Assembly (NCBI GenBank): GCA_977017645.1
Contig: OZ360232.1
Coordinates: forward strand, 77,562,001-77,626,000
DNA: 64,000 nt
Reading direction: 5' to 3'
From: Torpedo marmorata
Lineage: Eukaryota
Position 1 is the first letter of the stretch, and each line of letters starts with the position of its first letter. A program made the position numbers and the translations under genes. Below, in pieces: positions 1 through 25,464 of the stretch. The notes beneath the pieces were generated by a model. The model made no database searches. It saw nothing but the letters and a program-made list of their open reading frames with translations, and was not told the origin of the DNA.

Positions 1-189
1 CGGCAGCGCCACCATGTTGATTTATTGTCCTGCTTCAACTTGTTGCTAAGGTGCAGGAAAGTGACGGTCAAACACAGAGCCTGCAGGACGAGCAGGGAGG
101 TGAGCAAACAAACGAGTCTGCGGCCGGTCATCGGGCTTTTGCTACTTCCCATTGCTGGACAGAGCTTGCAGCCGCCTATTTCGTCGCGA

Positions 190-1327
190 CTGATACATAT
201 GCAGGACAAGTTTTCATATATACAAATAAATAAATAAATATTGCTTCGTAAATATGAGTCTCTCGGATGGTTAGTGTGAGCAGTTCCTTTGGTTATTCAG
301 CATGCTCTCTGCCGTGGGAAGAAGCTGTTCCTCAGCCTGGCAATGCTGGCTCTGATACTCTTGCATCTCTTTGCCAATAGGAGCAGCTGAAAGATGCTGT
401 GTGCAGGGTGGAAGGGGTCCTCAATAATTTTGCACACCCTCTTCACACAACGATCCTGATAGATCACGTCGATGGGAGAGTTGGGGGGAGGAGGGGGTGA
501 GACCCCACTGATCCTCTCTGCCACTCATACGGTCCTGTGGATTGACCTCCGATCCATTTCTCTGCAGCAACCGTACCACACTGTGAAGCAGCCGGCCAGG
601 ATCATCTCGATGGAGCTCCTGTAGAAGGTTGACATAATGGTGGCCGGTAGCCTTGCCTGCTTCTGTCTTCTCAGCAAATGCAGTCACTGTTGCACCTTCC
701 TGACAAGTGAGGAGATGTTGTGTGTCCACGATAGGTCACCAATTAAGTCAGCTCCAAGGACCTTGGTGCTTCCACTCTCTCCATTACAGAGTTATTGATG
801 TGTAGTGGAGGTTGGTTGTTCCTGGTCCTCCTGAAGTCCACGATCATCTCCTTCATCTTGTCCCTGTTGAGACTCAGGTTGTTACTCTCGCACCATATCA
901 GGAGATTTTCTACCTGTTTGGGCGGCACGGTTGGCGTAGCGGTTAGCGCAACACATTTACAGCACCAGCGATCGGGACCTGGGTTCGAATCCCACGCTGT
1001 CTGTAAGGAGTTTGTACGTGTCTTCCCATGTCTGCGTGGATTTTCCCCGGGGGCTCCGGTTTCCTCCCACCGTTTGAAACGTACAGGGGGTGTAGGTTAA
1101 TTGAGTGCAAATTGGGCGGCACGGACTTGTGGGCCGAAATGGCCTGTTACCATGCTGTATTTTAAAAATTTAAATTTAAATTTTCTCTGTAGTGCGACTC
1201 ATCGTTGTTGCTGATGAGGCCAACTACTGTTGTGTCATCTGCAAACTTGATGACACTGTTGGAGCTGATCTGGCAATGCAGTCGTGGGTCAGTAGCATGA
1301 ACAGGAGCTGGCTGAGCACACAGCCCT
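190..1327 (-). mobile_element. Rex1/Babar-clade LINE 3' fragment (degenerate RT C-terminus and 3'UTR), split by a SINE
   Basis: ORF pieces [20 protein letters not shown] and IIEDPFHPAHSIFQLL..RLRNSFFP; KFADDT-encoding sequence near 1225-1250; frameshifted. Confidence 0.85.
920..1180 (+). mobile_element. tRNA-derived V-SINE (HE1-like)
   Basis: A-box TAGCGGTTAG, B-box GGTTCGAATCC, V-domain-like tgtctgcgtgg..ctccggtttcctcccac, (TTTAAA)n tail; four more copies in the window. Confidence 0.85.
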
Positions 1328-2162
1328 AAAGGTTATCAATATGAGTTGAACTAATTGCCAAGATAATGCCTGACCCTACTGCAGCATTTTTTTAAAATTC
1401 AGCCTACATTACTTTGCTTTTGTAAAATCAGAGTAAGGATGGACTTTGTCTTCAGAAGGACTGTGCAGTGGTTACTTCTTCCAATGGACAGATCCATCTT
1501 GCATGGATAGAGAGGCAAGAAAGAGATCAAGTATGTTTTTGTTTGCTACCTGCCACAGACAGACTGGCAGTCATGTCCTTCAGAACTTGGCCAGCTTGAT
1601 CAGTGTTGGTGCTACAAATTTGTAAGTGATGGGCACTGAAAAAGAGGACAGAGTGTTTGTAGTGAGGGTGTGTTTCTCTCAAATGTTGTTCAGTATGGAG
1701 GTGCACTGAATCATTGGCTGAGGAAGGCAGGTGGTAATCAGAAGACTTTATGCCATGAGATATCTGGAGCCTGGAATTAATGTTGAAGACTTCAAATGTT
1801 ACTCCCTTCCTCATGGATACCACTGTGTTGCTACTTCTGCCAGTCAAAAGAAATATATCCAGGGAATGTGCTGAAAGAGTCATGTACATAGTGTTCTCAT
1901 AGAATCATACCTGACTGGTAATGTCAGACCATTAGTTCACTAATCTGTGGCTCAGCTCTCCCAATATAGCTAACAAATGTTTGTGATAACGTTGATTGAG
2001 CTTGGGGAGACTTTGCCAGAACTGAAATAAATGCCAGGTGGTCCCTCTTGTTTGAATGCAGTGATAATATTGCAGAGTGGTTTATGAGGCCACTTCAGTA
2101 GGCAATTAAATCAACTACGTTAGATGCGTCTGGAATCATATGTCGACAAAACAAATCAGTTA

Positions 2163-2502
2163 CAGTATATACACATGTGAAAGTCGACCCCCTGTTTTTG
2201 ACCAAAAAATATGGTATTTTCCATATATTGCTTGTAAAAGTTGACCCCCCTTATTTTTGGCCTTGGCCACCCGCCCATCCGAGCTCCCGACGCCCCGACC
2301 ATAGACTCTTGCCCCGGCTGCCCGCCCATCCGAGCTCCCGACACTTCGAACATGGACTTAGCACCCAGTCCCAGCCGCCCATCCAAGCTCCTGACGCCTT
2401 GGACAGCACAGGTACTTACTGCAGTAAAAGTAGTATGTGTGTAATAATCGACCCCTAAATTTTACCCAAAAATATTGGTCCACAAAATTTGACGTATATA
2501 CA
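2163..2502. mobile_element. Non-autonomous Tc1/pogo-type MITE (degenerate)
   Basis: TA-flanked ends cagtatatac..gtatatacag, repeated aagtcgaccc subterminal motif, three internal ccgcccatcc(g/a)agctcc repeats. Confidence 0.5.
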
Positions 2503-3289
2503 GTAGGTTTTAAGCGACAGTCCAGTAGTTTTCAAAATTATCATCACTAAGACCAGTTGTTTTTTTTTTTCCTACTCCCATATTATTGACCAAATTTAAA
2601 TTTCACAACTGCCAAGGTATGATTTGGACTTGTGTCCCTGGATTGTTAATCGAGAACTGTAGAATATGCGTCTGGCAATTTAACCACCACACTGTCATGG
2701 CACTCCATCTCAATGACTGAAGTTGATGTGATCTTGGCTCTCGAGTGGAAGCAACATGGACTGAACCGTTTTTCATTAGCCTTGAAGATTATCTCTTCTA
2801 CAGTGGGTAACTTATTGAGGTAAAGTGCAGCATTACAGTGAAAAAGAGAATATGGGCTGGGCAGTGACACAGCCCTACTTGACATCAGTACATATTGTTA
2901 AAAGATATGTTGTCATCCTTTTGGTTAACATTACAACTTGCATGGAATCATTAAGCAGTTGAAGATGGGGCACATTTCTGCATACAGCCACATTTGGTCT
3001 ATAGTTCCTCTCAACTGATGGAGACTAACAAGTCAAAAATGCCATTGCCACCTGAAAAATCCTACTAATTTTGCTGAACTTTTAAAACTTGAGAGGAAAT
3101 TTAGTGACAATTGCAACATCATTTCCCATAACTGGAGAGAAAGACATTTGAAGGGACCTGTAGTCATGTCCATCTTCAAGAAGAAAATCCAGTGTTTTCC
3201 AAAAGAAGTGTCTCCCTCTTTTCTGACCCAAAAGGTAATTGCCAGGATCTCCTCAGCATCCTCCTTCCATTGGCCAAAAAGCTACTCTT

Positions 3290-3830
3290 AAGTTCAAGTT
3301 TATTATCATGTGACTGTACATATACAAACAGACAAAACAGTGTTTCTCCAGACCACAATACACACACATTCACAAACAATATACAGCATATAATAATTAC
3401 ATATATACAAAAAGATATACCGATAATTGAAAAGAACTATCTACAAATATTTGGGAATGCTTTACTCAGTTACAGATTTTGATGTTCCTCTACCTCCTTC
3501 TTGATGGTAGTAGGTCAAAGATACTGTGTGCTTGATGGAAAGGATCCTCAATAATTCTTTGACCCCGATTTAAGCAACAATCTCATTGAATGTCATCAAT
3601 AGAGAAAAGGGAGACCCCAGTGATCTTTTTGGCCGTTTTGATGATCCTCTGTATTGACTTCCGATCTCTGCAGCTACCATACCAGACAATGATGCAGCCA
3701 TGACTTTCTCCAGCATTTTGTGTTTTTACTTCAGCCACGGTATCTACAGATTTTTGTGATTTACTAATGATGCAGCCATATAGGACACTCTCAATTATGC
3801 TCCTGTAAAAAGTTGTCAAGATGGGGTGAG
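3290..3830 (-). mobile_element. Rex1/Babar LINE 3' fragment containing a short Penelope-tail insert (~3700-3765)
   Basis: TTFYRSIIESVLYGCI..VWYGSC..IQRIIKTAKKITG; tail aagttcaagtttatt; insert ctccagcattttgtgtttttac matches the PLE 3' ends at ~26530 and ~29970. Confidence 0.7.
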
Positions 3831-4890
3831 CTCCAGAGTCCTTGTTTTTTCTGTGGCAATGAGCATTTTTGACTTCTTGATAGTTGAGAGTAGAGTTAAG
3901 ACTGGATCAGACAATTTGCTGTAGAATAAAGTTGAGATTGCTCATATGAAGACTTGAATCACAACTGAGGACATCTTGGTGTTCCTTCCAGTGGCCACTG
4001 ATTATCTCAGTTATCAGCAAGTTACTGAACCTCTAACCCTCTTTACTCACACCATCTATTCTTTAGATCACCAGTTTTCCATCTGAACGACATTCATGGG
4101 CCTGTTTCTTTTTTCTTTCCGTGAGATAGTTTCATGTCCAAGAACACCTTGAATTTGTGCAGCTCCTGGTCATTCTCATCAAGCTATGTGTTTTGTTGGA
4201 GGAGTCAAATGCCTCTTTATAGCTGGTAATTATAGTGACTTAAGGGCAATAAAGATGCTATGGACTTTCTGCACCTTTTGTTGACTTAAGGTTAGTCAGG
4301 TTCTCTGAAAGGGTTTCATAAAAGGCCTATTGTTGCAGTGTCACTTCAATGCTGATTTTCTTACTGCAATGTTTCTGTTTTGATTTGGGACTAGGCTAAT
4401 TGAGGCAGCAGAATGGATTAGAAAACAGCCATTGCGATAGTCATTAGCACTTGTCCTGGAAGAGTGACATTCATGGTGTTTCTCGCAGATGAAATACCGG
4501 TAGTTTGCCAGTGCCTGAAATGAGGATGTTCCTTGAAACCTGGTTCTTGGCTCTGTCAAACCAGGGAGTTATTCATGACAAGACTGTGCTTCAAGCATTT
4601 TGACAGAAGATGGATTCTGATGAAATTACTTTTTCCTACTCCCTTTTTTTTGCTGCTACTTCACACCCTTCCAGAGGCAAACAATAAGAGACAATTTAAT
4701 ACCATACTAAAGTTTCCTTATGACAGAATCAACCTCAGTAGACTATCTGTGGAAGAGATATTTTGCTTCGTGCCAGCATGTACATATACAAAGAGTATGC
4801 TTACGTAAATCTGCCTTACTCGTTATTTTGAAATAGGTTCAGAAAATTGTTGCTGAAGACCTGTTTTCTAAAAACATTTAGAAGACTCAC

Positions 4891-4943: not shown

Positions 4944-5796
4944 CTACAATGAAACATGGAAAGGAATATTTTAACACAAACAGTATTTAAAATTTGGCAT
5001 GGTAAATATCTATTTACAGAACTTGTAAATAATAGAATGCAAGCAATATAATCACAGTATCTTAATTTTTTTTTCAATCAAAATATCGCATGATTTTGTT
5101 TGCTATGTTATCTTTTAATAATTTGATTTGCATTGTTTCAACAATATTTTGGGTTTCAATGTATACTCTTGCCAAAGATTTGTTTCGAACCTTTACTACA
5201 AACTACATGGATGATATACATCTGACTTTTAACATACTCTGGAAATAACCTTATAGTCTTCTCACTTTAATTTCAATAGTGAGTTTGAGGAAACTCATGC
5301 ATTATCTTAAAATGAACGAGTTGAAATATCAATGGAATATGAGTCATTTAAATATAGTAATTGGAAACTCAATTTTCCAGAAGAAGAGGCCAAACACAAG
5401 TAGTAAGATAACCCCAAGTTAAACTAAGAAGTTGGTGTGTTACAACCAGCTTCTGAAATTGCTGGCATATTCACTAAATTTCATAACATAACAAACAACT
5501 TGTACTTCAATACTGAAGTATGCCCCATTGGTTGCATGTCATTTACTGAAAGTTCATGCATAGAAAGAAAAGGTAAATCTTTATGACTATGTCCTTATGG
5601 TTCCTATTATGCACATTTTGGAACAAAAAAGTTAATTTTCCACCCCATGTTGGGGATGAGCAAGAATTAAACAAGTTCAGTTCCATTGTTATCATAATTA
5701 TATTCTAACAGTCTTGATTCATTGCAGTTAAAAGCTGTTTTAACAAAGTGCCACTATACTGTTATCAAAGTTTGTTTTATCAGATTTTAAAGGCAG

Positions 5797-6419
5797 TATA
5801 AGTAACGGTGACTTCGCTCCACCAATAGTCACCTGGAGGCTAAGTGTGGTCCTTGCTTTTGACGCGTTTTATTTTATTTACTGACAAAGTCCAATATGTT
5901 CAGAGATTTTTATTTTCACACATGACTTGCAGTAATCTTCAATGACTTTAATATAAACAGTTCTTGTAAACGATGTATGATAAGTTCCTTTAAATTATTC
6001 TTTAAACAATTCCAAAACGATATGAAAACACTGTAGATGATGTTAAAGTTATAAAAACATTATAACTCGATATAAAACGGTCAATAAAGATGTGGAGACC
6101 AGACTCACCCTCCATACATCTTTTCCTTTCCTGTTCTCTCTCTCTTTAATGGCTCTGCGCATCCTACCCCGCGCATACTACAACTCCCAGCCTCCCACGC
6201 GCACAATGACGTCGCTCCATACTGCGCATGCGCCCGTCGGCACTCCCGCGCATGCGCATATCAAAGAACGGGCTGATAGCGGCCCGCAGACAACGCGAGC
6301 GCTCCGAACGGGCCGAGGACGGCCCAGCAACATCCACAACAATTACGCGGCGCTCCAAGGCCCGACAAGACATCGGAGCGCCGCAACAACGGTAAGTAAA
6401 CGAGCCTACGGCTCTTACA
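5797..6419 (-). repeat. 3' LTR of the BEL/Pao element
   Basis: Direct repeat of 11157-11779; element-sense ends TGTAAG...CTTATA; AATAAA near the U5 end. Confidence 0.95.
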
Positions 6420-6432
6420 CCGGCCCCTAATT
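6420..6432 (-). other. Polypurine tract of the BEL element (AATTAGGGGCCGG)
   Basis: Abuts the TG of the 3' LTR; resembles vertebrate BEL PPTs. Confidence 0.75.
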
Positions 6433-6623
6433 ATTATAATTAGACGTAATGTCTTGAATAATAATTACACTATAAATTATAAATAACAATAACCATAATA
6501 TTCAAAACAATACAAATCTTCTTTCTTCCTTCTTCATAAATCTAGAGTTTACCATAACTCTGATTAAACAAAAGTCTGTAACCTGTGAAATGTACAACAA
6601 CAAATAAAGTCAGTTCACATTTA

Positions 6624-6807
6624 TCAAAGTTCCTCTGTCTCCAACAAAAGGCAGACCTTATTAATAGGTCTGTTTAGAAAAAACCAGTCTTAGGTTTAAT
6701 TCACATTTGACGCACAAGTCCTCTTTGTCTTGAAAAGTCTCAATAATCTTTTCCAAGTAACCAGGAATTTCTTGAAGTTGAACCATCCATAACAATCACA
6801 ATGTCTC
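6624..6807 (-). pseudogene. Frameshifted remnant of the BEL integrase C-terminus (DUF5641-like)
   Basis: Manual translation across frameshifts: DIVIVMDGSTSRNSWLLGK / IIETFQDK / GLVRQ / RPINKVCLLLETEEL*. Confidence 0.8.
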
Positions 6808-6844
6808 TTTAAAGTTCTTTTATCTTCAAATCTGAGTTAAAATG

Positions 6845-9800
6845 TCAATCAGTAAACCTCAAATCTTCTTCAGACAAAATAGATACAGTTTTTCTTTTGA
6901 ATTTAACACAAGGCACTTCTTCAGCACGTCGTTTCACTTTATTCCTTTCTTCAGTGTTCCACTTCTCATGTGAAGAATTTAAACTCTTAGAATTAGAATT
7001 TGAATATTTATCTGATTCTTTCGATTTTAAACAGGTCTGTTTAACCACTCTGGTTTCTATGGCTCTTTCCTGCAATTCTAAATCCAATTTCGCAACTTTC
7101 AATTCAGTCTCAGCTCCTTCCGAGAAATTAATAATTTGATCTGAAGTCAAAATATCATGCGATACATTGATAGTTCCATTGTCAATCCTGTTGCGGCATA
7201 CTTGAAATTTTTTAATTTCTTCGTCTTGCTTGATACATTTCTGCAATGCAATTTCACATTCTTTCTGCATTGTTAATTGTTGAACATTCAATTTACATTC
7301 TTGATTGGTTTTAAAAGTTAACTGTTTTGTGTTATTAACCAATAACTTGATCTCTTTCAAAACATTAATCTCTTCTTCCAACCTTTTACATTTTGATAAT
7401 GCTGAATCTCTTTCCTCAATAACTGTATTCATTTCTTCAACAGTTATTCTTTTCTTCCGCTTTCTGACTTTGCGAGTTTTACTTACAATTAAATCTTTCT
7501 GTTTACTGTTTTCTTGCTTATTTAATATTTCCAATTCTCCTTTCAACATTTTGTTCTCTGAATCATTATTCTTTATTCCATCAGCACAATTTTCTGTGTT
7601 TTCCAGTTTTACATCACATTGTAATATTTCTTCATTAGCTTTGTCAATTGTAATCTCTGAACTACAAAATCTACATTCAGATTTGTTTTCAGTCACTTGT
7701 TTTATTCCTGTATCTGATTCAATTACACATGAATGATCAATAGTATTATTTGCAACATCTTCTAATACTTCACTTTCATTCATTTTTGACGAAATTAATT
7801 TCTTCAATGTTGTTTTAAATACCACTGATTTATTTTCACATTGATCTGTTTTCTTTTCTTCAAAAGTGATTTTCTTATTCACGGTTTTTTGCTCTTCGCT
7901 TAACTCTTCAACTTTCTCAACCGAAATTTTATTAATATTTATCGCTACCTGTTCCTGAGCAATATCATTATTTCTTTCCATTGGTCCATTGATTGCCCAA
8001 CCAAGTATGGTTCTAATAGCGTAAGGTCCATTCCTTTTACTTTCTATTACTTCTTTTGGTACCAAAACCTTTGGCACATCTGAACCAATCAGCATTTCTA
8101 TTTCAGAATTAATTTCAGGTAAATAAACCTTCCACAGATAAGCTAAATGATGGATATCACTTTGATGAGGAATATTTCCTTCGTTCACAGGCATAGTCTT
8201 CTGAGTATATACACTTGGAAGATCACAAAACCTTTTGTCATCTAATCCAGCAACCTCTAAGCCTGAAACAATGTTAGTTTCAACAACCTTTTCTTGTCCC
8301 ATGGTTTTTAACATAATTCTTGATTTTCTTCCTTGAATATTAAGTTTATTCATTAGTCCTTCCGTGCAAAAAGATGCAGTGCTGCCTGGGTCTAGAAATG
8401 CATATGTTTTTACTATTGCATCCCCTTTCTTGGCTTTGACTTGTACAGGCACTATTGAAAGTTTGCAGTTATCCACACCGGCCCCAGTAAGACCACTTGT
8501 CTGAACCGAGGTTATAACATTATTTTCTGTTGTTTCCTTTGTTTCTGTTTGCTCCTTTTCCAATTCCTTGTTTCTGTTATGGATATGCAAAATTCTAGGA
8601 TGTTTCAAATTGCATATGTTACAATTAATTCGCTTCTCGCAGTTTTTACTGATGTGCCCTTTACACAAACAGCTAAAACATATCCCATTTTCCTTTAAGA
8701 AAGCGATCTTTTCCTTATGTTCCTTCTTTTCCAATCGTAAACACATTTCTAAAGTATGTCCACCTTTACAGAACAAACAACTCTTTTTATCAGAACTTTC
8801 CTTTTCCTTATTTATAACTGACACATTAGTAGCAAACGTACTCCTTTTCATTTTCGGGCTATACTGTGTATTAGACTTCCTTACATCTTTGCCCATTGAA
8901 TTATCTCTGGTTTTTCCATATAGTGGATCTGTTTCAACGTACACCCGTCGTTCAAGAAAATTTACTAAATCCTTTAAGGTAGTTTTTCGACCGTAATCTA
9001 CTTGTAAATCACAAGCCAAATCTCTCCATCTATCCCATAACTTGTAAGGTAATTTTTCTAAGATGATTCTCATATTACTATGCACTTCAAGTTCACGAAT
9101 ATTATCAATTTTTTCCATAGCATTACAACATCCTCTTAAAAACAAAGTATATTCTTGCAAAGCCTTTACATCATTTTGTTTTATTGATGTCCATTTAAGA
9201 GCTTTATCCATATAAGCTAAAGCAATTCGATGTTTGTTGCCAAAATATTGTTCCAATAAAGCCTTAGCTTTGTCTAATCCTCTTCCTGAAGACATTTGGT
9301 TACAACTTTTTACCAGTTCTTTTGGATGTCCCTTTGTGAACATTTCCAAATAATAAAGACATTCATCACGATCTTGGCATTTATCTTCAATATTGCGTTT
9401 GAAAGATCTCATAAATGATTGATATTGAAGTGGATCACCATCAAAAGTTTGTATCTCTTTCTTGGGTAAAGAAGAGAGAGACTGTAACTGAAACAATGAT
9501 GCAGCAATTTCATTTTGTCTTTCCTTGGATTTCAATACATTACTCTGTTCACTGTCTCGTGTTGTATGCAATGTATCTGGAAACCTTACTGGTGTAGTTT
9601 CTTCCATATTTCTGATGCTTGGCTCATATAACAAAGAATTTACTTCGTTCGACCGGACCCAAGCCGCAGCTTTGCTTTCAGATGTTACTAATGGTACATG
9701 TGACTCGATACCAATATGCTCGTGAAAGGTTTGTCCTTGTATATGTAAGTTTTGTATCCTTGGTTCTAAAATATCTATCCTTTTGGTTGATTTCTTTTCC

Positions 9801-10711
9801 TGTGACTCCTTTTTTAAATATGACCTTTTATTATTAGACAATTTAGATGATTTACTGCTAGCACCAGATACCATTGAGCCTTCTATTGCTTTCTTTTCTG
9901 CCTTGGCAATAGCAATGTTTGCTTCCAGTTCCTGCTGTTCTTTTCTCTGCTTTAGCTGCTCCTTCTCTTGTCTTAGCTGCTCCTTTAGCTGCTTCTCATT
10001 TTGTCTTAGCTGCTCCTTTAGCTGCTCCTCATTTTGTCTTAGCTGCTCCTCCTCTTGTCTTAGCTGCTCCTTTAGCTGCTCCTTTAGCTGCTCCTCCTTT
10101 CGTCTTAGCTGCTCCTCCTTTTGTCTTAGCTGCTCCTTTAGCTGCTTCTCATTTTGTCTTAGCTGCTCCTTTAGCTGCTCCTCATTTTGTCTTAGCTGCT
10201 CCTCCTCTTGTTCTAATATAAATTTATCCTTAAGCGTTTTTTGTTGTGCAAGAAGAGCGGCCAATTTAACATCAACCTTTGTACGTGACGATGCAGAACT
10301 TGAAGTACGAGAAACTCTGGAGCTTGAACCAGAACTTTTTTTGCTTCTCCTGCTTTCAGCATTTGAGACACTGTCACTTGCTTGTATTTCGTCCTGCAGT
10401 TCACATGTTGTCTTCATACTTACCTCTTTATCCAATTCAAATTGTTCATCATTTGTTGACACAATTTCAGCCATTTCCAAGTTATCTTCTTGTTCAACTA
10501 ATGAAGCTGCTTCTTCTTCCTTTGCCTGCTTCAATCTTTCAATAAGAACCTTTTTATTTCCACTTATGTCCTTATTCAGTCGCTTCAATTCTTCTTTAAT
10601 ATCCGCAACCTTCATGTCTTCAATACGTTGGTCCTCAACAGCAACATCAGCGGTTGCTGCGTCAGCTGCTGATAAATCAGTAGCTGCTGTATCAGTGGCT
10701 GCTGCGGCCAT
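6845..10711 (-). CDS. Chimeric polyprotein: SAP domain - repeat coiled coil - BEL Gag (DUF1759-like, three Zn knuckles) - aspartic protease - MIPOL1-like coiled coil; no RT/RH/IN core
   Basis: Uninterrupted 1309-codon ORF; likely start aaaATGG at 10711 (1288 aa); FDGDPLQYQSF; CLFCKGGHTLEMC, CFSCLCKGHISKNC, CNICNLKHPRILH; AFLDPGSTASF..LIGSD..LGWAINGP; no YxDD motif. Confidence 0.9.
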   Translation of the reverse strand: MAAAATDTAATDLSAADAATADVAVEDQRIEDMKVADIKEELKRLNKDISGNKKVLIERLKQAKEEEAASLVEQEDNLEMAEIVSTNDEQFELDKEVSMKTTCELQDEIQASDSVSNAESRRSKKSSGSSSRVSRTSSSASSRTKVDVKLAALLAQQKTLKDKFILEQEEEQLRQNEEQLKEQLRQNEKQLKEQLRQKEEQLRRKEEQLKEQLKEQLRQEEEQLRQNEEQLKEQLRQNEKQLKEQLRQEKEQLKQRKEQQELEANIAIAKAEKKAIEGSMVSGASSKSSKLSNNKRSYLKKESQEKKSTKRIDILEPRIQNLHIQGQTFHEHIGIESHVPLVTSESKAAAWVRSNEVNSLLYEPSIRNMEETTPVRFPDTLHTTRDSEQSNVLKSKERQNEIAASLFQLQSLSSLPKKEIQTFDGDPLQYQSFMRSFKRNIEDKCQDRDECLYYLEMFTKGHPKELVKSCNQMSSGRGLDKAKALLEQYFGNKHRIALAYMDKALKWTSIKQNDVKALQEYTLFLRGCCNAMEKIDNIRELEVHSNMRIILEKLPYKLWDRWRDLACDLQVDYGRKTTLKDLVNFLERRVYVETDPLYGKTRDNSMGKDVRKSNTQYSPKMKRSTFATNVSVINKEKESSDKKSCLFCKGGHTLEMCLRLEKKEHKEKIAFLKENGICFSCLCKGHISKNCEKRINCNICNLKHPRILHIHNRNKELEKEQTETKETTENNVITSVQTSGLTGAGVDNCKLSIVPVQVKAKKGDAIVKTYAFLDPGSTASFCTEGLMNKLNIQGRKSRIMLKTMGQEKVVETNIVSGLEVAGLDDKRFCDLPSVYTQKTMPVNEGNIPHQSDIHHLAYLWKVYLPEINSEIEMLIGSDVPKVLVPKEVIESKRNGPYAIRTILGWAINGPMERNNDIAQEQVAININKISVEKVEELSEEQKTVNKKITFEEKKTDQCENKSVVFKTTLKKLISSKMNESEVLEDVANNTIDHSCVIESDTGIKQVTENKSECRFCSSEITIDKANEEILQCDVKLENTENCADGIKNNDSENKMLKGELEILNKQENSKQKDLIVSKTRKVRKRKKRITVEEMNTVIEERDSALSKCKRLEEEINVLKEIKLLVNNTKQLTFKTNQECKLNVQQLTMQKECEIALQKCIKQDEEIKKFQVCRNRIDNGTINVSHDILTSDQIINFSEGAETELKVAKLDLELQERAIETRVVKQTCLKSKESDKYSNSNSKSLNSSHEKWNTEERNKVKRRAEEVPCVKFKRKTVSILSEEDLRFTD
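9950..10210 (-). repeat. Coding minisatellite of 12/21-bp units (EQLK / EQLRQxE)
   Basis: Repeated ttagctgctcc units; frame preserved throughout. Confidence 0.9.
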
Positions 10712-11156
10712 TTTACTCGTCTTGTTCCTCTTTCCTTCAAGCATACACAACACTAGCCAAACAACAGTCCCCAATGGACCAGCGGCAGCAATTCCAATCT
10801 GTGTTCTTACTTGTTAAAGATACACAGAAGGAGTCCACAGACTTATGCCTACCACTTCAAATGACTGTAATGTGCTGCAATCCACAAACGAGTTTCAACC
10901 ACAACATCCGTCACTAATATCACTGATTTTCCAAAAAATAGTTTTTCCAACGTATTTATAGGACACTTTACTATAAGATTTGAAGCTTTAAATCCCTCTC
11001 TGGCTGTTATTCATGGCAGATGGAAGTGGATTACAAACTGCCCCCAACTCGAGGCATCTCCAAAATGGCCACCAATTTATATCAGTCCAAAGCACAGAGA
11101 GTTTTCTATCTTCTTTCCTTCAAACTTCTGTTCCAAACAGCCAGCCCTTTATTGAC

Positions 11157-11779
11157 TATAAGTAACGGTGACTTCGCTCCACCAATAGTCACCTGGAGGC
11201 TAAGTGTGGTCCTTGCTTTTGACGCGTTTTATTTTATTTACTGACAAAGTCCAATATGTTCAGAGATTTTTATTTTCACACATGACTTGCAGTAATCTTC
11301 AATGACTTTAATATAAACAGTTCTTGTAAACGATGTATGATAAGTTCCTTTAAATTATTCTTTAAACAATTCCAAAACGATATGAAAACACTGTAGATGA
11401 TGTTAAAGTTATAAAAACATTATAACTCGATATAAAACGGTCAATAAAGATGTGGAGACCAGACTCACCCTCCATACATCTTTTCCTTTCCTGTTCTCTC
11501 TCTCTTTAATGGCTCTGCGCATCCTACCCCGCGCATACTACAACTCCCAGCCTCCCACGCGCACAATGACGTCGCTCCATACTGCGCATGCGCCCGTCGG
11601 CACTCCCGCGCATGCGCATATCAAAGAACGGGCTGATAGCGGCCCGCAGACAACGCGAGCGCTCCGAACGGGCCGAGGACGGCCCAGCAACATCCACAAC
11701 AATTACGCGGCGCTCCAAGGCCCGACAAGACATCGGAGCGCCGCAACAACGGTAAGTAAACGAGCCTACGGCTCTTACA
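11157..11779 (-). repeat. 5' LTR of the BEL/Pao element
   Basis: Direct repeat of 5797-6419; CpG-rich U3. Confidence 0.95.
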
Positions 11780-12178
11780 GGCAGTTAAAGTGATTCTTCA
11801 CTGTTCAAAAAAATTAATTGTGAAAGAACAATGCAATTTCTAATCATATCCAGATATTCAGCATATTTTTCAGTTGTCTTTAAATTCATCTGAAAAAAGT
11901 GAGGTGTTAAGGAATCACTGTGGTGTAATCACAACAGCATTTGAAGGGTGAATTCATAGAGGTCACTTTAATGAACTGGAGTTGAGCAAAGTTAAGCAAC
12001 TTCAACAAAGAACAAAGAACAAAATACTCAAAGGATGGGCAAGTATATCAATGCCACCTTGATAATCAAGTTCAAGTTCAAATTAATTGTCAGAGTACAT
12101 ACATAACATCACATAGAACCTTGAGGTTCTTTTTCCTGCAGGCAGGTGGAGAATTATCAGCTATGCAAATGATGTCAA

Positions 12179-14140: not shown

Positions 14141-15677
14141 GACTGGGAGGTTTACAACTCCCTAATTTTAAAAATTATTATCGAGCGGCACAAATGAGAT
14201 TTGTTACTTCCTTTTTTGAAAGTGAAGTAAGACCTGCATGGGTTGGAATAGAGCTTGGTGAAATAGGAGAAAAGGTACCAGAAGAATTTATATACAAATG
14301 GAATTCAAAATTATTGATAGGTGCTAAAGAAACGCCGTTGTTAAAACATTTGATTAATGCTTGGAACAAGATTAATGATGAGATAGGGATGAAAGGAAAC
14401 ATATCACCCAAAATGTCTTTGATACAGAATAATCTTATACCATTTACAAAAGATAATCAATTTTTAAACATATGGTCACAGAAAGGAATAAAGAAGATTG
14501 TTATGAAGGGAACCAGCTGATGTCGTTTGTACAACTACGGAATAAATATGGAATACCCAATAACACTCTTTTTGTTATTTTCAATTAAGAGGTTATTTAA
14601 GAGAAAAACTAGGTCCAGATATGTTGTTACAAGATTGTAGTGAGGTAGAAATTCTTATTAGGAAAGGAAATATTAAAAAATTTACTTCTATAATGTATTC
14701 TTTGCTACAAAGGGGAACTTTAAAACGAGGACTTCATAAGTCTAGACAAAGATGGGAGCAAGATCTTAATGTTACAATTGATTAAAAAAAGATGGTCGGA
14801 TTTATGTCAAGACAGTATGATTAATACTGTTAATGTAAGATATAGATTAGTACAGTATAATTTTTTACATCAATTATACCTTACACCACAAAAACTGAAT
14901 AAGATAAAATCTACGTTATCAAATAGGTGTTTTAGATGTGGCGAAGTGGAGGGAACTTTTCTACACTCAACATGGTTATGTTCTAAAGTTAAAGGTTTTT
15001 GGATAGAGTTAGGGAACCGGTTAAAACAAATTACAGGTGTTGCATTTCCACAGAATCCTGATTTATTTCTATTAGGAAATGTGGAAGGAACTAGACCAAA
15101 GTTGAAGTTATCTACATGTCAATTGAAATTTGTAAAAATTGCTTTAGCAGTAGCAAGGAAGTGTATAGCAGTAACTTGGAAATCAGATACAAGTTTAAGT
15201 ATGGATAGGTGGAATTCAGAGATGCGGAGCTGTATTCCTTTGGAAAGAATAACATATAATATGAGAAACAAATATGGGATATTTTTGCAAATTTGGCGTC
15301 CATATATCCAATCATTAGGTATGAATATTTGAATGTGTTGCTCTACACCCTGGACCCTATTGACTCTCTCAAACTTAAAGAATAAATATTGTTGAATACC
15401 ACGCGTCGAGCCGTGGACCCAGCAGCGATCCGTTCAGTCGTATTGGATAAGAAATATTAATGCCTTCTTTTCTTTTAGTTTTTAGAAAGGGGAGGGAATT
15501 AAAGGGAGGCAAAGGGTGGAGGGTGGGCAACTTTATAGAGGGTGGGTTATGAGAGGGGTTAGATACACTGTAATACAAATTATGTTTTTTATGTACCGGA
15601 ATTAATAATGTATACTACGTATGTTGTATTACTGTGAGAAAATTTAAAATTTAAAATAAAATATTTTAAAAAAATAA
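14141..15677 (+). mobile_element. 5'-truncated L1 (ORF2 C-terminus, G-rich 3'UTR, A-tail) inserted in the 5'UTR of the older L1
   Basis: GGLQLPNF..YRLVQYNFLHQLY..CFRC..HSTWLC; 16-bp TSD taataatgttgttaaa (14125-14140 / 15678-15693). Confidence 0.9.
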
Positions 15678-15976
15678 TAATAATGTTGTTAAAAAAACAC
15701 TCCCACCAAAGTTAGGTTAGTGAATATCACAAAAAAAGTTAGGTCCGGAGGTGGAAAGTGTTAAATGTTGGCAGAGCCGATGACTAACACGGCTTAATCC
15801 ATGTAGTCACCCAACTAATGGTTTAAAAACTTGGCCATAACCAATAAGAAACCCAATGAAAGCTCATCCTAGAGTACCCAAACTTCAGGAGCTTTATCCT
15901 ATACAGAAATAAAAACTACTATGGCAATATACAAGGTACTATTGTTGCAGGAATATATATCAAGGTAACAATACTA

Positions 15977-16847
15977 CCGTATTTGACGGCATATAGGACC
16001 CCCCCCCCCCCATTTATAGCGTGAGATTTCAGGAAAAATTTGTTTTAGTGTATTTACCTTCACAGCAGCAACACGTCCTCCTGCCCGCCACACGCCGAGG
16101 CTCAGGCTGCTTCCCCCCCCACCGTCCAAACGCTAATTGATTGACAGGTGTGCCGGGACCTGCAGGCGCGCGAGGGTGGGAGGGAGAGAATCCAAGACAA
16201 CGGGCAGGGCCCAGGCCCACCGTCGCAGGGAGCAGACGATCGATCGCTTTCTTCGAGGGGAGCGCTGGGCCTCAGTGATCAGGCTCCACGCTGAGTCTTT
16301 GTTCGATGCGCACGGCTCCCCGAACAGATTGAATGAGGCTCGGGGGCGGGTGGCAGTGAGCGAGTGGCCTGTTGAGCTGAGCTTGACAGGCCACTCGCTC
16401 ACTGCCACCCCCCCCCCCCCCCCGGCGCCTCATTCAATTTGCTCAGGGTCCGTGCTCGTCGAACAAAGGCTGATCATCAAGGCCCAGCGCTCCCCTCAAA
16501 GCACTGTTGGTGAGAGCGAGCGGGAGGGGGAGCGAGCGGGCGGTGAGAGAGCGGGCAAGGGCAAGCGAGCAGGCGGGGAGAGTGAACGGGAGGGAGAGAG
16601 CGGGCGAGTGAGCGGGAAGGAGGGAGAGAGTGAGCCTTCTTACCGGGGGAAGTGAGCGGCGGCGACTCCGGAAAGCACGGGTCCCCCAAGGGAAGGTGGT
16701 CTGCGAAGCTGCGGGCCCGCTTCCTGGACTCCACTCAGTTCCCAAAATGGTGGCACCAAAATGTCACCTTCGCATATAAGACCCGGGGTGGTTTTTGAGG
16801 TGATTTTTTAGGGAAAAAAGGAGGGTCTTATATGCCATCAAATACGG
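15977..16847. mobile_element. Tc1/pogo-superfamily MITE with GC-rich palindromic interior
   Basis: TIRs ccgtatttgacggcatataggaccc / gggtcttatatgccatcaaatacgg, TA TSD on both sides. Confidence 0.85.
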
Positions 16848-17428
16848 TAATTGGATAATCACTAAATTTTAGAAACAGAATACAATAAGCATAAAGCGTA
16901 TTTAGTGTCTGACAGAAGACTAATTTCTACCCCTTAACATAACCCCATCTGTCACTTTGTATTACAGTATACATTACTGTGAACATTCATTGGAGTTCTA
17001 GAAATATAGGCAGAATGCGATTCAATTTTGTTGCAGAATGTGATCTCTTCAACAAGTACTGTAAATGGAGTGGATGGCAGCTATTTATGAAGGAAAGCTA
17101 GCATGCAAAATGTCCAGAAGCATACTATGAATTTCAACTGCTACATAAATCATGGAGTCGACCTTAACCAATCTCAGCAGTTGAGCACAATATGGATTTA
17201 TGTTCTACCCAATTTTACTCTGTTAAAACTAATGAAGTATTATATTGGGACCATTCTAAAACTAATTATCCATTTGAACTGTAGGTTAACCACCCAGAAA
17301 GTTAGGTTAAAGATAACCCCCATGATTCTAAGGTTATAACAATATAAATAACCACGTTATTCCTCCCTCAAAAATTAGTTACCCGATATCTACAAAAGCA
17401 CCGTGTGCCAAAATAAGTTGATACAGAC

Positions 17429-17531
17429 TTGCAGTTCTTTTTTGGCTGGTGTTCAGTAACCGGGTCCGTAGATTTTCATTCTCATGAAGCATTTTGTAAA
17501 TGACTCTAAAAACTTCACGGTTCTTGCCAAA
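17429..17531 (-). CDS. Putative internal exon of the host gene (FGKNREVFRVIYKMLHENENLRTRLLNTSQKRTA)
   Basis: Acceptor tttatttatatag, open protein-like frame; donor ambiguous (17429, 17402 or 17383). Confidence 0.6.
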
Positions 17532-17598
17532 CTATATAAATAAACACGTTTTAGACATGTTAATACAGTATTTGAATTCATATCCAAAAAGATTTTAA

Positions 17599-17846
17599 GG
17601 GCGGCACGATTAACATATTGGTTCAAGCAACACTATTACAGTGCCAGCGACCCTGGTTCGAATTTTGCGCTGTCTATAAGGAGTTTATACGTTCTCCCTG
17701 TGTCTGAGTGGGTTTCCTCCAGGTGCTCTGGTTTCCTCCAACCCTTCAAAAACATACAGGGATTGTAGGTTAATTGGTGTATTTGAGGGGCACGGGCTTA
17801 TGGAACGGAAAGACCTGGTACCGTGCTGTATGGCTAAATTTTAAAA
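17599..17846 (+). mobile_element. V-SINE copy
   Basis: Same family as 920-1180. Confidence 0.85.
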
Positions 17847-18265
17847 CTAACTTTGCCAAGGCCTAAGACATACTTTAACAAATTCAAAGTACAGCAAAAC
17901 TCCACTGATCAGCATACTCAAGACTTTGGTGATGCCGGACTTGTTGATTTTCCAAACTGTTGGATGTTATTTTATTAATCCTCCAACACACTTTTTTTTT
18001 TAAAAAAAAAAAGATACTGCACAGTAAAATAATACATTTGCCAGTGAACATGGTGGATTTCAAGGGAATATGAGAACCAGGGTGCCAGTGAGTAGAAGCA
18101 CAGGAATCAGTGGAAGTCAACCAGGCGTTGAACCATCAGGATTTGCAAATAGTCAGACAGAGGATTATCTGAGTTATACTGCATACATCTTAACGTTTTT
18201 GAGATGTGTGTGTGTATGTGTGTGTATATCTATATATCTATATATCTATGTATGTATGTATGTAT

Positions 18266-19202
18266 TGTTACAAATTCAAACCAGCAACGACAGAAGACGC
18301 AATGCAAAAGGGGTAAAATTGAAATTTATATTTATTAAAGACAATTAAACATATAATTTCACAACAATTAACCCCACTATAAACGTCTATAAACACTATT
18401 CTTATCTAAAAGGTGTGTGTGTGTGTGTGTAAAGCCCAGACCATTACAGTCTGTGCCAAACCCTTATGTAAAAATGGAAAAACTTTACCCAAAAACCCCC
18501 GGTCAGTCATAAAAACAAGTCAGTCAAAAAAAAATAATACAGTCCACAAAAATTCACTCTCTAAGTTCAGGTTTCAAATTCAGCTCTGTGTGCTGGTAGA
18601 AGTACTTCTGAATAAACTTTGGAGAGAGACAATGACTGTTTATGCTTACAAATACTTGACTTGCTTTTCTTCTCTGATGACGTTCCCTTCTTGTGTTTTC
18701 ATAAGGATTGCGAATTCAGATCCGGTTTGGAATTAAGGCGTTTACTTGGATTTCACAGCCGGTTCCTCACAAAAGCTGCCTTCACAACTCAGGATTCTGC
18801 TGAATCATCCGGCCTTGTTGACTCCCAGCCCTTTTCTCTGGGATGTACAAGCCTGGACTTTTCTGATTCAAGAGACTCTGTGCTATTCTTCCCACTTCTT
18901 CTCTTGGATGCACAGGCCTGGATCCTACTGAGTTCTCCCGCCTTTTCAACTCCAAAACTTCCACTGAGTTAGTTTTAACTTTAGGCCTCACAAGAGAGAG
19001 AAACTCTGCAGCCTGTGTTTTTAAAGCCTCACACCAAATGTGCTTTTCACAGTTTGTCTCCCCCTGATGTCTCTCTCTGGTAAATACAAGAAGTCCTGAG
19101 CAAGTTAACTCTTTCAGTACCAGGTCCCAGTGTATATTCCAAAAGACTTCATCCTTCCTGCTTACCGTCCTCAGTCCAAACTGTCAGTCATGGTCCATAA
19201 CA
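18266..19202 (-). mobile_element. Solo LTR (937 bp) inserted in a TA/TG microsatellite
   Basis: TGTTA...TAACA ends, 4-bp TSD GTAT, TTTATT (minus-strand polyA signal) near 18331. Confidence 0.75.
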
Positions 19203-19238
<36 letters not shown>

Positions 19239-19339
19239 TTTAGGTAAGGTTGATCTTCACTATAAAATAGTGCTCAACACGTAATGTGGAGCTAAATAAA
19301 TAAGTAAACAGAAAAGCACACTACTCACATGTGCCCGAC

Positions 19340-19650
19340 NNNNNNNNNNNNNNNNNNNNNNNNNNNNNNNNNNNNNNNNNNNNNNNNNNNNNNNNNNNNN
19401 NNNNNNNNNNNNNNNNNNNNNNNNNNNNNNNNNNNNNNNNNNNNNNNNNNNNNNNNNNNNNNNNNNNNNNNNNNNNNNNNNNNNNNNNNNNNNNNNNNNN
19501 NNNNNNNNNNNNNNNNNNNNNNNNNNNNNNNNNNNNNNNNNNNNNNNNNNNNNNNNNNNNNNNNNNNNNNNNNNNNNNNNNNNNNNNNNNNNNNNNNNNN
19601 NNNNNNNNNNNNNNNNNNNNNNNNNNNNNNNNNNNNNNNNNNNNNNNNNN
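19340..19650. other. Assembly gap (N run)
   Basis: 311 N. Confidence 1.
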
Positions 19651-20668
19651 CATCTGTGCCACCATCTGCAACTGGATCCTTGACTTTCTCACCGGAAGAC
19701 CACAGTCAGTACGAATTGGAAACAATGTCTCCTCCTCACTGATTATCAACTCGGGCGCACCCCAAGGATGCGTGCTTAGTCCACTGCTCTACTCGTTATA
19801 CACCCATGACTGTGTGGCCAGGAACAATTCCAATGCCATCTACAAGTTTGCCGATGACACCACAGTTGTCGGCAGAATCACAAACGGCAATGAGGAAGCG
19901 TACAGGAGGGAGATAGATCAGCTCGTTGAATGGTGTAACGACAACAACCTTGCGCTCAACGTCAGCAAAACCAAGGAGATGATTGTGGACTTCAGGAGGA
20001 AGTCAGGGGAACACGACCCAGTTCTCATCGAGGGCTCAGTAGTGGAGAGGGTCAAGAACTTCAAATTCCTGGGTGTCAACATATCCGAGGATCTGTCCTG
20101 GAGCCTCCACGTTGATGCAATCACAAAGAAGGCTCGCCAGCGGCTATACTTTGTGAGGTGTCTGAGGAGATTCGGTATGTCACCGAAGACTCTCGTAAAC
20201 CTCTACAGGTGTACCGTGGAGAGCATTCTAGCTGGTTGCATCACTGCCTGGTATGGAGGCACCAACTCTCAGGACAAGAATAAACTCCAGAGGGTTGTTA
20301 ACTCGGCCTGTGACATCACAGGCACCAGACTTCACTACATCGAGGACATCTACATGAGGCGGTGTCTTAAAAAAGCAGTCTCTATCCTCAAAGACCCCCA
20401 CCACCCAGGCCATGCCCTCTTCACTCTGCTACCATCGGCAAAAAGGTACAGGAGCCAAAAGACAAGCACTCAACGGCACAAGGACAGCTTCTACCCCGCT
20501 GCCATTAGATTCCTAAATAATCAATGAACCAAAAACACTGCCTTACTTTTCGTGCACTATTATTTATATATTTTTATAGTAATTTCGTAAGATGGTTATA
20601 ATATGAATGTTTGCACTATGATGCTGCCGCAAAACACCGAATTTCATGACTTGTTCATGACAATAAAT

Positions 20669-20672
<4 letters not shown>
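19651..20672 (+). mobile_element. Rex1/Babar LINE, RT C-terminal half open, 5' end in gap
   Basis: [31 protein letters not shown]; 3' end caataaattctga; same family as 30606-32075. Confidence 0.92.
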
Positions 20673-20717
<45 letters not shown>

Positions 20718-20722
<5 letters not shown>

Positions 20723-23700
20723 TGTGAGCTACACAGAATTCTGAAGAACAACACACAGTCGGTGGGTTGCAAGCAAGACTGTTTAATCGGGTCTCGCAAC
20801 CCTGGCTTTTAAGCAGGGCTGCGAGCTTAATTGCTGTCGTTTACATGACCATTGCCGCTTAATCGCTGTCGTCTACATGACAATGGGAGCTGTACATTAC
20901 AATGGGAACTTTCCCGGGTCTCCTGTCCTTCTTCTCCTGGTTGAAGTAGTTGGGGGGGGGGGGGTTGGTGCCATCTTTGCGCCGGCCCCTGCTGTTGCCA
21001 GGTGTACTTGCGCGACCTTTATAGTGGTGCCCTGTGTGGTCCCCTTCTGACGAACACATACTCACAGCTCCGCAGGTTGTTGGGGATGCGCGCGGGCCGC
21101 TGTCCGTGTTGCGACGTGGGGATCGGTGCTGGGTTGCCGAGTTGCTCGCGGAGTCTGTTGAGCACCTCTGCTGTGCTGGCATCTTGCCTCCTTGGGGTTG
21201 GTAGGAATTCCCCTGGTACCACCAGGGGGGTTCCGTAGACCAATTCTGCCGACGAGGTATTGAGGTCTTCTTTAGGCGCTGTGCGGATCCCCAGGAGGAC
21301 CCACGGCAACTCGTCCACCCAATTCGGACCGTCTAGGCGGGCCATTAGAGCGGCTTTTAGGTGGCGGTGGAAGCGTTCCACTAAACCATTGGATTGTGGA
21401 TGGTAAGCCGTCGTTTTGTGGAGCTGTGTGCCCAGCAAGTTGGCCATGGCTGTCCACAGGGCTAATGTAAATTGGGCCCCCCTGTCCGAGGTAATGTGGG
21501 CTGGCACCCCAAAGCGTGCGACCCACGTGGTGATAAGGGCTCTTGCACAGGCTTCGGTGGTGATGTTCGCGAGAGGGACTGCCTCGGGCCAGCGAGTGAA
21601 ACGGTCCACCATGGTGAGGAGACGGGTAGGGGGCCTACCAGGTCTACGTGCATGTGGTCAAATCGCCTGGTCGTTGGCTCAAATTTTGTGGCTGGGTCTT
21701 TGTGTGGTTTTGGACTTTTGAGGTCTGGCACTGCACGCAGTTCTTGGCCCATTCGGTGACTTTCTTGCGGAGACCGTGCCAGACGAATTTACTTGAAATC
21801 AGCTTAGCGGTAGTTCTGATGAACGGGTGGGATAAGCCGTGAATGGAATCGAAAACCTGCCTCTGCCACGCCGTTGGGACAATGGGTCGGGGTGGCCTGT
21901 GGAGACGTCACATAGGAGAGTTTGCTCACCTGTCCCGATGGCGATGTCCTGGTTCTGAAACATTGCATCTCTTCATCAGCCTGCTGCGCCTCTGCCAGGG
22001 CGGTGTAGTCGATCCCTTGGGCTAAGGCTTGGATAGTTGGCCGGGATAGTGCGTCAGCTACAGCGTTGTCCTTTCCTGAGACATGCTGAATCTGTGTCGT
22101 GAACTCAGATATGTAGGACAAGTGGCGCTGTTAGCGGGCCGACCAGGGGTCGGAGACTTTCGAAAACGCGAAAGTGAGCGGCTTGTGGTCAGTGAAGGCG
22201 GTGAATGTTCTACCTTCCAGAAAGTATCGAAAGTGCCGTATGGCCAGGTACAGTGCTAGTAGCTCCCGGTCGAAGGTGCTGTATTTAAGTTCGGGTGGCT
22301 GTGAATGTCTACTGAAAAAGGCCAAGGGTTTCCAGCTGCCTTCACTAAACTGCTCCAGTACCCCGCCGACTGCCGTGTTTGAAGCGTCCACCGTGAGGGA
22401 GGTTGGCACGTCGGTTCTGGGGTGAACCAGCATCAGCCAGGGCCTCTTTGTTAAAAGCCGCAGTGGATTCCGCATCCCAAACCAGCGCTTTGGCTTTGCG
22501 GGTGAAAAGCGGACGCATGATGCGGGCTGCTGCTGGCAGGAATCTGTGATAAAAATTGACCATCCCCACAAACTCCTGGAGGCCCTTGACGGTGGATGCC
22601 CGGGGGAATTTGGAGAACTGCGTCCACTTTGTCGGGTAGGGAAGTTGCGCCATGGCGTGTGATCATATGGCCCAGGAAGTCAATTGTGGAGAGACCGAAC
22701 TGGCATTTGGCCAGGTTGACTGTAAGGCCAAATTGGTTTAGGCGGTTGAACAGCTGGCGGAGGTGTGCTATGTGCTCCTGGCGGGTTTTACTGGCGATAA
22801 GTATATCATCCAAGTAAATGAAAAGGAAGTCCAAATCCCGCCCTACCGCATCCATTAAGCGTTGGAAGGTTTGGGCCGCGTTCTTTAGCCCGAATAGCAT
22901 GCAGAGGAATTCAAACAGGCCAAAAGGGGTTATGATGGCTGTTTTGGGCACATCCTCTGGTAGCACGGGGATTTGGTGATAACCTCGGATGCGGTCGACC
23001 TTTGAGAATATAGTCGCCCTGTGCAGGTTGGCGGCGAAGTCCTGAATGTGGGGAACAGGGTAGCGGTCGGGAGTGGTGGCTTCATTAAGCCTGCGGTAGT
23101 CACCGCATGGCCTCCACCTACCGGATGCTTTGGGCACCACGTGCAGTGGGCTTGCCCAGGGACTATCGGAGCGTCTGATTATCCCTAAGGTCTCCATCCT
23201 GCTAAACTCCTCTTTGGCTAGTCGGAGTTTATCCGGGGGCAAGCGGCGTGCGCGGGCGTGGAGCGGTGGGCCCTGGGTGGTGATGTGGTGCCTGACACCG
23301 TGCTTGGGCATCTCTGCCGTGAACTTGGGGTCGGAAATTGACGGGAAATCAGCGAGCAAGTGGGTGAAATCGTCCTCTGGCTGCGCTACGGAGCTCAGCT
23401 GGGTGGAGTGGTGATTGGATTTTTGCAGGGCAAAGGATTGGAAGGTCCGTGCATGGACCAGCCGGTTACCCTGCAGGTCTGCCAGTAAGCTGTGTGCCCT
23501 GAGGAAGTCGGCCTAGGATGGGCATCCAGACGCTTGCGAGCGTGAACTCCCACGAGAAATGGCTGTCGCCGAACCGGAGGTATGCCGTCCTTGGGCCGAA
23601 CGTTGGAATGGTGCTGCCGTTGGCGGCCCGCAGCGCGTGTCCCTGTGACCGGGTCCTGGTTTTGTACGGTGTCGGGGGAATAATGCTGATTTTGGCTCCT

Positions 23701-25204: not shown

Positions 25205-25464
25205 TGAACTCATTTGACTCGGGACTCATTTCTACCCAGTTATATTACACAATATGTCACTTTAACTTTTGAACATTGTGTTCCAAATTAACATTAAGTT
25301 ATCTTTGCAATTACTCATCATTCACAATCCATATTCCTCAGATTTAAAAATACTCAAAAACTGTATTTCCACTATCCTGAGGAAGACAGTTCCATGGTTC
25401 ACGGCTCTGAGAAAACAAAATGTGCCTCATCGCAATCATAAATAGACAATCGATTATTGTAGAA

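Follow-up and report, generated by a model that had tools for sequence, protein, structure and literature searches.

Defective gag-onc retroviruses are helper-dependent, and spliced host sequence replaces pol in them, in frame with gag. Much the same seems to hold for the element discussed here, which occupies positions 5797 to 11779 of a 64,000-nucleotide stretch of the Torpedo marmorata genome (contig OZ360232.1, positions 77,562,001 to 77,626,000 of the forward strand; hereafter 'the window'). It belongs to the BEL/Pao retrotransposons, has two long terminal repeats (LTRs) and one open reading frame (ORF), and carries, in place of pol, a cassette put together without introns and in frame from parts of the host genes BRCA1, MIPOL1 and Elongin A. 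However, gag-onc viruses are infectious, receive env from the helper and encode a working oncoprotein, whereas this element, which we call the passenger, is a germline retrotransposon whose host fragments are without known functional domains. We favor a joint reading, which we hold to be probable without being confident of it: the passenger would be a BEL/Pao element lacking reverse transcriptase (RT), its pol swapped for host pieces that include MIPOL1 exons from a circular RNA, which shares particles with an autonomous helper and has a working tail.

Several described systems come close. Maize Bs1, according to the accessible parts of the reports (PMC5131818, PMC13317346), is an LTR retrotransposon whose chimeric ORF combines exonic sequence from three host genes and which, like the passenger, has transposed again with its switch points in common; but it is described there with 1–5 copies and one piece out of frame, whereas the passenger family has an estimated 15,000–22,000 copies, in which every piece follows a constrained Gag-protease in frame and one piece is back-spliced. 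The mouse circRFWD2-derived pseudogenes (33–42 copies, mechanism left unresolved; Dong et al., 2016, PMC4897178) share with it a non-colinear exon joint at splice sites, the restriction to circle-resident exons and the association with LTRs; here, in contrast, the piece from the circle is part of an element with both LTRs complete, is in frame and under selection, and has at least 2,933 copies. LTR-mediated retroposition in animals, including a mosquito BEL case (Tan et al., 2016, PMC5131818), likewise gives sense-oriented copies of incomplete mRNAs and chimeras of several genes, with microsimilarity where the template was switched, but as far as the accessible text goes it concerns young or decaying retrocopies and not a dominant selected family, and the word 'circular' is absent from its main text. 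The plant TR-GAG elements (PMC8704663) also have two LTRs and one Gag ORF, lack RT and integrase and are moved by an autonomous relative; no host cassette is described in the available part of that paper, and its example is Copia-type, not BEL. MIPOL1 itself heads the retrocopy parents of cartilaginous fishes in a 2026 survey (bioRxiv 10.64898/2026.06.26.734816), whose accessible main text reads this rank as functional filtering, ties retrocopies to non-LTR elements and does not contain the word 'circular', and in the accessible part of PMC10901741 Mipol1 appears only as a mouse host-pseudogene pair. The initial annotation of this DNA knew of no described element with such an architecture. Our literature search, with most subscription papers and the repeat databases outside its reach, also found neither the whole architecture nor the family described, but the parts do have precedents in Bs1, circRFWD2 and TR-GAG, and it is the combination of back-spliced capture, in-frame genes, selection and ~20,000 copies that is unusual.

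Anatomy of the passenger and its autonomous helper

The element reads on the minus strand. Its LTRs of 623 bp show no mismatch between them, have the termini TGTA..TATA, and are flanked on either side by the 5-bp target-site duplication GGCAG, which bears out the very recent insertion proposed in the initial annotation. The minus-strand frame free of stops extends from 10813 to 6845 and gives 1288 aa from the ATG at 10711. The features are as follows.

5792..5796, no strand: left target-site duplication GGCAG, read from the sequence
5797..6419, minus strand: 3' LTR, 0 mismatches in 623 against the 5' LTR
6420..6432, minus strand: purine-rich tract adjoining the 3' LTR, common to the helper
6624..6807, minus strand: C-terminal tail of integrase, frameshifted, outside the ORF, ~95% identity to the helper
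6833..7046, minus strand: Elongin A-derived piece; the PF06881 (BC-box) part of older copies is lost
6845..10711, minus strand: lone ORF of 1288 aa, with SAP, repeat coil, Gag, protease and BRCA1/MIPOL1/Elongin A tail in this order
7046..7496, minus strand: MIPOL1-derived piece, exon order F-G-H then B-C, from comparison with host exons
7190..7191, minus strand: back-splice junction at which the donor of MIPOL1 exon H meets the acceptor of the upstream exon B, worn here and exact in old copies
7489..7893, minus strand: BRCA1-derived piece, two spliced host exons remaining here and four in older copies
7900..8460, minus strand: aspartic protease with FLDPGS motif, omega 0.11–0.12 in passenger copies
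8585..9484, minus strand: BEL Gag core and three Cys/His knuckles, from the sequence; DUF1759 in the near-identical helper
9923..10213, minus strand: tandem E/Q/L/K-rich repeats, varying in length from copy to copy and present in the helper too
10523..10624, minus strand: SAP domain, inherited from the autonomous BEL; PF02037 in the window ORF and in helper L091
11157..11779, minus strand: 5' LTR, 623 bp, TGTA..TATA, helper copies having identical termini
11780..11784, no strand: right target-site duplication GGCAG, read from the sequence

A Pfam scan of the window protein found SAP (E 6e-9, aa 30–63) and a weak aspartyl protease match (E 0.11), and no RVT, RNase H or rve. This is the pattern the initial annotation had predicted except that DUF1759 and DUF1758, which it had expected as well, match the helper (94% identical) and not the window protein; the BEL-type Gag with its three knuckles and the protease nevertheless lie within one ORF. 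RT, Pao RNase H and integrase core, which define an autonomous BEL, are missing in the window and all present in helper L091. The window element is a non-autonomous BEL/Pao derivative, not an autonomous BEL. A concealed RT or integrase in the C-terminal third of the ORF, a possibility that the annotation had itself singled out, was ruled out, because host exons account for the tail. The one recognizable pol remnant it had pointed to, the integrase tail outside the ORF, carries three frameshifting indels relative to a helper copy.

A genome search with Pao RNase H led to the autonomous copies, as expected from the earlier proposal of a BEL helper with similar LTR ends; of the 20 loci fetched, for which a long frame was the main criterion of choice, 11 have an ORF 2018–2134 aa in length, and in nearly all of them LTR, gag, protease and integrase tail match the passenger at about 86–96%. 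Pfam finds SAP, DUF1759, DUF1758, RT, RNase H, integrase and DUF5641 in the ORF of L091, and no env. The window element follows the helper over element bases 1–3891 (94%) and from 4973 to the end (95%), about 3.2 kb of helper pol corresponding to about 1.08 kb of other sequence in the passenger. Like TR-GAG elements, the passenger has thus kept a Gag ORF and lost RT and integrase while an autonomous relative exists.

Since the helper ORF contains the SAP domain and matches the element there, SAP came with the helper lineage; its capture by the passenger family was considered and rejected. Of the two flanking modules that the initial annotation took to be host-derived, therefore, the MIPOL1 capture stands, while SAP was not gained by this family, and its region has an omega (dN/dS ratio) near 1 in helper and passenger alike. 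The best match of the SAP region in the PDB is the MKL1 SAP (E 2e-5), and an Atlas search for its source gave no usable match. That the autonomous BEL itself begins with a SAP domain (copies L081–L091) is a separate observation; a literature search for BEL/Pao elements with SAP found no paper. The LTR ends also deserve mention. BEL/Pao LTRs are expected to end in TG..CA. They do so in the old copies L179 and L180, and end in TG..TA in young passenger and young helper copies; the end also appears to have shifted by ~4 nt (window 5797–5800 and 11157–11160).

In a gag tree, helper and passenger copies are intermixed, and 200 bootstrap replicates never recovered either group as a clade, whereas the passenger protease is a single clade (support 100/99). 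The tree shows that gag recombination between helper and passenger is ongoing, and the intermixing implies co-packaging of the two in shared particles.

The host-gene cassette and the order of MIPOL1 exons

The MIPOL1-like tail of the initial annotation is real, with a match to Pristis MIPOL1 of 51% over 156 aa (E 7e-27), but incomplete as a description: the likeness is confined to the middle of the C-terminal third of the ORF, which consists of BRCA1, MIPOL1 and Elongin A pieces with a back-splice inside. The BRCA1 piece matches Narcine BRCA1 at 77%, and at 53% in the window element, and the corresponding host proteins of the source genome are closest to those of rays, matching Narcine proteins at 85% (BRCA1) and 95% (Elongin A). 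Comparison with the host loci shows that the old copies hold sequence from four BRCA1 exons and five Elongin A exons, in normal order and with introns gone. The BRCA1-derived piece contains none of RING, coiled-coil and BRCT. All captured pieces are in sense orientation, and in frame wherever frames survive (an 803-aa ORF in L210). As in Bs1, spliced pieces of several host genes lie between LTRs, with microsimilarity at the two joints that bound the MIPOL1 piece.

The MIPOL1 piece differs in its exon order. A genome search with the MIPOL1 protein revealed older copies in which residues ~340–470 precede ~210–300, and exons A–I were mapped in the 320-kb host locus. The top matches of that search are 29 old loci, and in all 29 of them exon H runs into exon B precisely at the exon borders (19–25 of 25 bases), the normal next exon I matching at 4–6 of 25 bases. 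The joint in the window (7190/7191) is worn, with ungapped matches of 51/70 and 49/70 on its two sides against a shuffle maximum of 34. The captured run consists of F (48 onward)-G-H-B-C and 19 nt of D, 585 nt in all; both outer breakpoints fall mid-exon, with microhomology of 2 nt and 6 nt, and the flanking exons A and I were never matched in the copies examined. What would be looked for in a retrocopy derived from circular RNA is therefore present: a joint of a donor to an upstream acceptor at exon borders, absence of introns, and exons of the circle only. Because a joint of H to B at the exact splice sites is what the capture of a circular RNA would leave behind, the MIPOL1 piece was likely copied from one. 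The exon B-to-H circle would measure 780 nt, a multiple of 3, and reads round without a stop, so that it is potentially an endless ORF. Locus L182 has a tandem repeat of a 405-nt MIPOL1 F-G-H-B unit inside one open frame of 459 aa.

Other copies vary in their host content. In an older subfamily (L209:8262–8774, L210:8232–8903) Elongin A is followed by a fourth host piece, residues 828–998 of cytosolic isoleucine-tRNA ligase (PDB 9w01, E 7e-71; DUF5915). By these alignments, three to four host genes have been captured in frame across the family. In L209–L213, BRCA1 is preceded by Elongin A sequence (exon 3, the beginning of exon 4, or both), which suggests that Elongin A was captured first and that BRCA1 and the MIPOL1 circle then replaced the middle of its exon 4. 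Four cassette copies lie within MIPOL1 introns, which we do not read as pointing to a local origin; the density of the family as a whole predicts ~one per 300 kb, leaving a mild excess at most.

Copy number, spread and selection

The passenger is a multicopy, non-autonomous family, as annotated. A 20-mer of the shared gag occurs exactly at 23,108 sites and one of helper RNase H at 989, while the junction 20-mers occur at 2,694 (window type) and 239 (host type) sites; each reversed control has 0 sites. Twenty gag sites were picked evenly, all within the initial 14 Mb of a single contig; the cassette was present at 17 and pol at 1, and 2 were too broken to classify. Multiplying the gag count by the sampled cassette share gives ~14,800–21,900 passenger copies, roughly 2% of the 6.2-Gb genome, and a ratio to the helper (~1,000) of about 20:1; the junction 20-mers by themselves put the minimum at 2,933. 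The genome-wide MIPOL1-protein search gave 49,868 first-look candidates, a figure that was not used as a copy number.

All 40 scored matches of a genome search with the tail are at least 98% identical, and the first 20 copies fetched align across both LTRs and the internal region, with an LTR pair recovered in 19 and an exact 5-bp target duplication in 13 of these 19. A second set of 20 window-type copies, picked evenly, has ORFs above 1200 aa in 14 and LTR identities of 98.7–100% in the 18 with a measurable pair. Old copies have LTR identities of about 82–95% and are mostly 91–98% identical to the host exons, without introns. Contigs of the independent runs X1, X2 and X7 cover the window element in 30/30 bins, the cover being full for the organism codes A, B and also F, and runs of codes G and I cover the old-type cassette, single contigs spanning the back-splice joint, which a circle and the element copies would have in common; run X7, conjectured to be RNA, was not counted towards expression, and run X9 (no cover) and run X6 (12/30 bins) were not used. 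The passenger family is therefore common to several organisms in the run index. Protein searches found no match to the fused element protein, a weak negative given their length limits. From all these sequences, we consider the element real and the family large and active-looking. At L237 (near 1.50–1.52 Mb of one contig), five cassette-bearing units stand head to tail with a period of 4,964 bp, 99.96% identical where compared.

The notion that the ORF is kept open by selection held up well. The window cassette differs from the host exons at 211 of 1020 aligned bases without a single stop, whereas neutral simulation gives 11.5 stops on average and none of 5000 runs was stop-free. Its indels relative to host exons or an old copy are multiples of 3 in 9 of 9 cases (chance 5e-5 under random lengths), against 3/3 frame-shifting in the untranslated integrase tail, and in the 20 window-type copies the cassettes are free of frameshifts and contain two private stops. 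For 15 intact young copies (the window element plus 14 of 20 evenly picked, 6 having been dropped for broken ORFs), omega is 0.12 for protease, 0.24 for gag, 0.40 for the cassette and 0.29 for its MIPOL1 part, with 0.29–0.44 in each of the three host pieces; a stops-only null, which leaves recombination out, has a median of 0.99 for the cassette (range 0.63–1.50), and 0 of 40 runs are as low as 0.40. The cassette omega was 0.51 in 13 young intact copies chosen by similarity. From host to window, however, omega comes to 0.61 where neutral simulation gives 0.74; since 16% of the simulated runs reach so low a value, the difference is not significant. Taken together, the two comparisons indicate early drift or remodelling of the tail and moderate constraint on it at present. 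For protease, its omega of 0.11–0.12 and its own clade argue that the constraint belongs to the passenger itself, whereas the low gag omega may be partly borrowed from the helper, because gag is exchanged between the two.

The remainder of the window has other repeats. An AT-rich cluster of long interspersed nuclear elements occupies 39635–51275, with a 1175-aa frame for endonuclease and RT at 39638–43162. Gypsy-like LTR remains with protease, RT and RNase H lie at 34478–36750, 22451–24260 and 61972–63907, and the piece at 35.8–37.8 kb has an inverted relative near 62–64 kb. A weak GIY-YIG match at 25463–26251 may mark a Penelope-type element. ARAGORN found no tRNA within the window.

Possible scenarios and their implications

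RTs of LTR elements are established to jump templates between co-packaged RNAs (PMC5131818, in its accessible part). We propose that RT switched in this manner onto co-packaged host RNAs over several steps, Elongin A probably being captured first and BRCA1 with the 780-nt MIPOL1 circle afterwards inside it. A passenger copy would be transcribed from its LTR and translated to Gag-protease-tail, which would co-assemble with helper Gag-Pol, and the passenger RNA would then be copied by helper RT and integrase. Such a need for helper enzymes fits the LTR ends and purine tract common to both and the exchange of gag. The helper has a single ORF for both Gag and Pol, so that a passenger adding further Gag-protease would increase the yield of particles and favor its own RNA, which fits the ~20:1 excess. 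We think it somewhat more probable than its contrary that translation continues through the tail and that the tail acts as a generic end-domain replacing Pol, most likely a helical or spacer end and not a functioning BRCA1 or Elongin A module. The more specific proposal, that the circle-derived coil amid BRCA1 and Elongin A fragments is a working end-domain of Gag-protease by which the passenger supplies helper particles and comes to outnumber the helper, is put forward tentatively, at a little under even chances.

Several points weigh against this picture. No RNA run on record contains the stretch. A tRNA primer site was not recognized behind the 5' LTR in either passenger or helper. Known functional parts are missing from the cassette, namely the BC-box of Elongin A and RING and BRCT of BRCA1, and 27 codons have been cut from MIPOL1. 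To these must be added the non-significant host-to-window omega, the exclusion of broken copies from the 15-copy set, the omission of recombination from its null, the possible borrowing of the gag constraint, and the narrow origin of the gag-site sample.

Some of these would be expected if the tail were merely an open spacer, whose translation to near the 3' LTR guards the RNA from decay triggered by a long 3' untranslated region or aids packaging; origin and helper dependence would be unchanged and the amino acids would hardly matter. The weak host-to-window constraint, the in-frame deletions that halved the cassette and took out known motifs, the several young copies that lose frame only at the extreme end, and a sense strand of 44% A all suit it. 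But omega in all three pieces of young copies is below all 40 stops-only simulations, and a simple deletion from protease to tail, which would also shorten the 3' untranslated region, was seen at 0 of 18 classifiable gag sites. We rate the spacer, the chief rival, as unlikely, though deserving serious attention. A different doubt concerns the circle: the scrambled MIPOL1 order might stem from a linear RNA, through a since-lost B–H tandem duplication, trans-splicing or an RT jump. Circular MIPOL1 RNA was unseen here, our literature search found no 'circMIPOL1' paper, and non-colinear junctions can have other origins, as Dong et al., 2016 (PMC4897178) warn. Against this, the joint falls exactly on both splice sites with only 3 nt in common, each host exon occurs once in the 320-kb locus, nothing outside the circle was captured, and the 585 nt taken are less than one turn of 780 nt; a linear source seems to us improbable.

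Retention of the fusion by the host as a restriction factor or regulator, be it a chromatin tether or a dominant-negative Gag, can point to purifying selection on the tail and to the SAP domain. Yet selection is seen among fresh copies at different sites with near-identical LTRs, which speaks for selection in the course of replication. Moreover, the helper remains active and exchanges gag with the passenger, and the SAP region is unconstrained. Chromatin tethering and helper restriction, both floated in the initial annotation, received no support, and we regard this explanation as very improbable. An assembly artefact or single-copy accident is practically out of the question, considering the thousands of copies with distinct target duplications and the cover in independent runs of five organism codes; the misassembly that the annotation had warned of is excluded likewise.

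If the favored joint reading of a helper-sharing passenger with a captured circle is right, back-spliced RNA would have left a far larger genomic footprint than the 33–42 mouse copies (PMC4897178), and its route would be visible: a circle captured in a particle, fused in frame, and then selected. The graded fossil series, from near-host copies to the form active today, would make the birth of a new protein domain traceable over thousands of copies, and the system lets one ask whether RT-less LTR elements aid or only parasitise single-ORF helpers. The family probably explains the top rank of MIPOL1 among cartilaginous-fish retrocopy parents in the accessible text of the 2026 survey (bioRxiv 10.64898/2026.06.26.734816). 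Small RNAs against ~20,000 copies could perhaps cross-target BRCA1, MIPOL1 and Elongin A mRNAs. If true, this would be a retrotransposon that domesticates host genes in reverse, a passenger filling roughly 2% of a 6.2-Gb genome.

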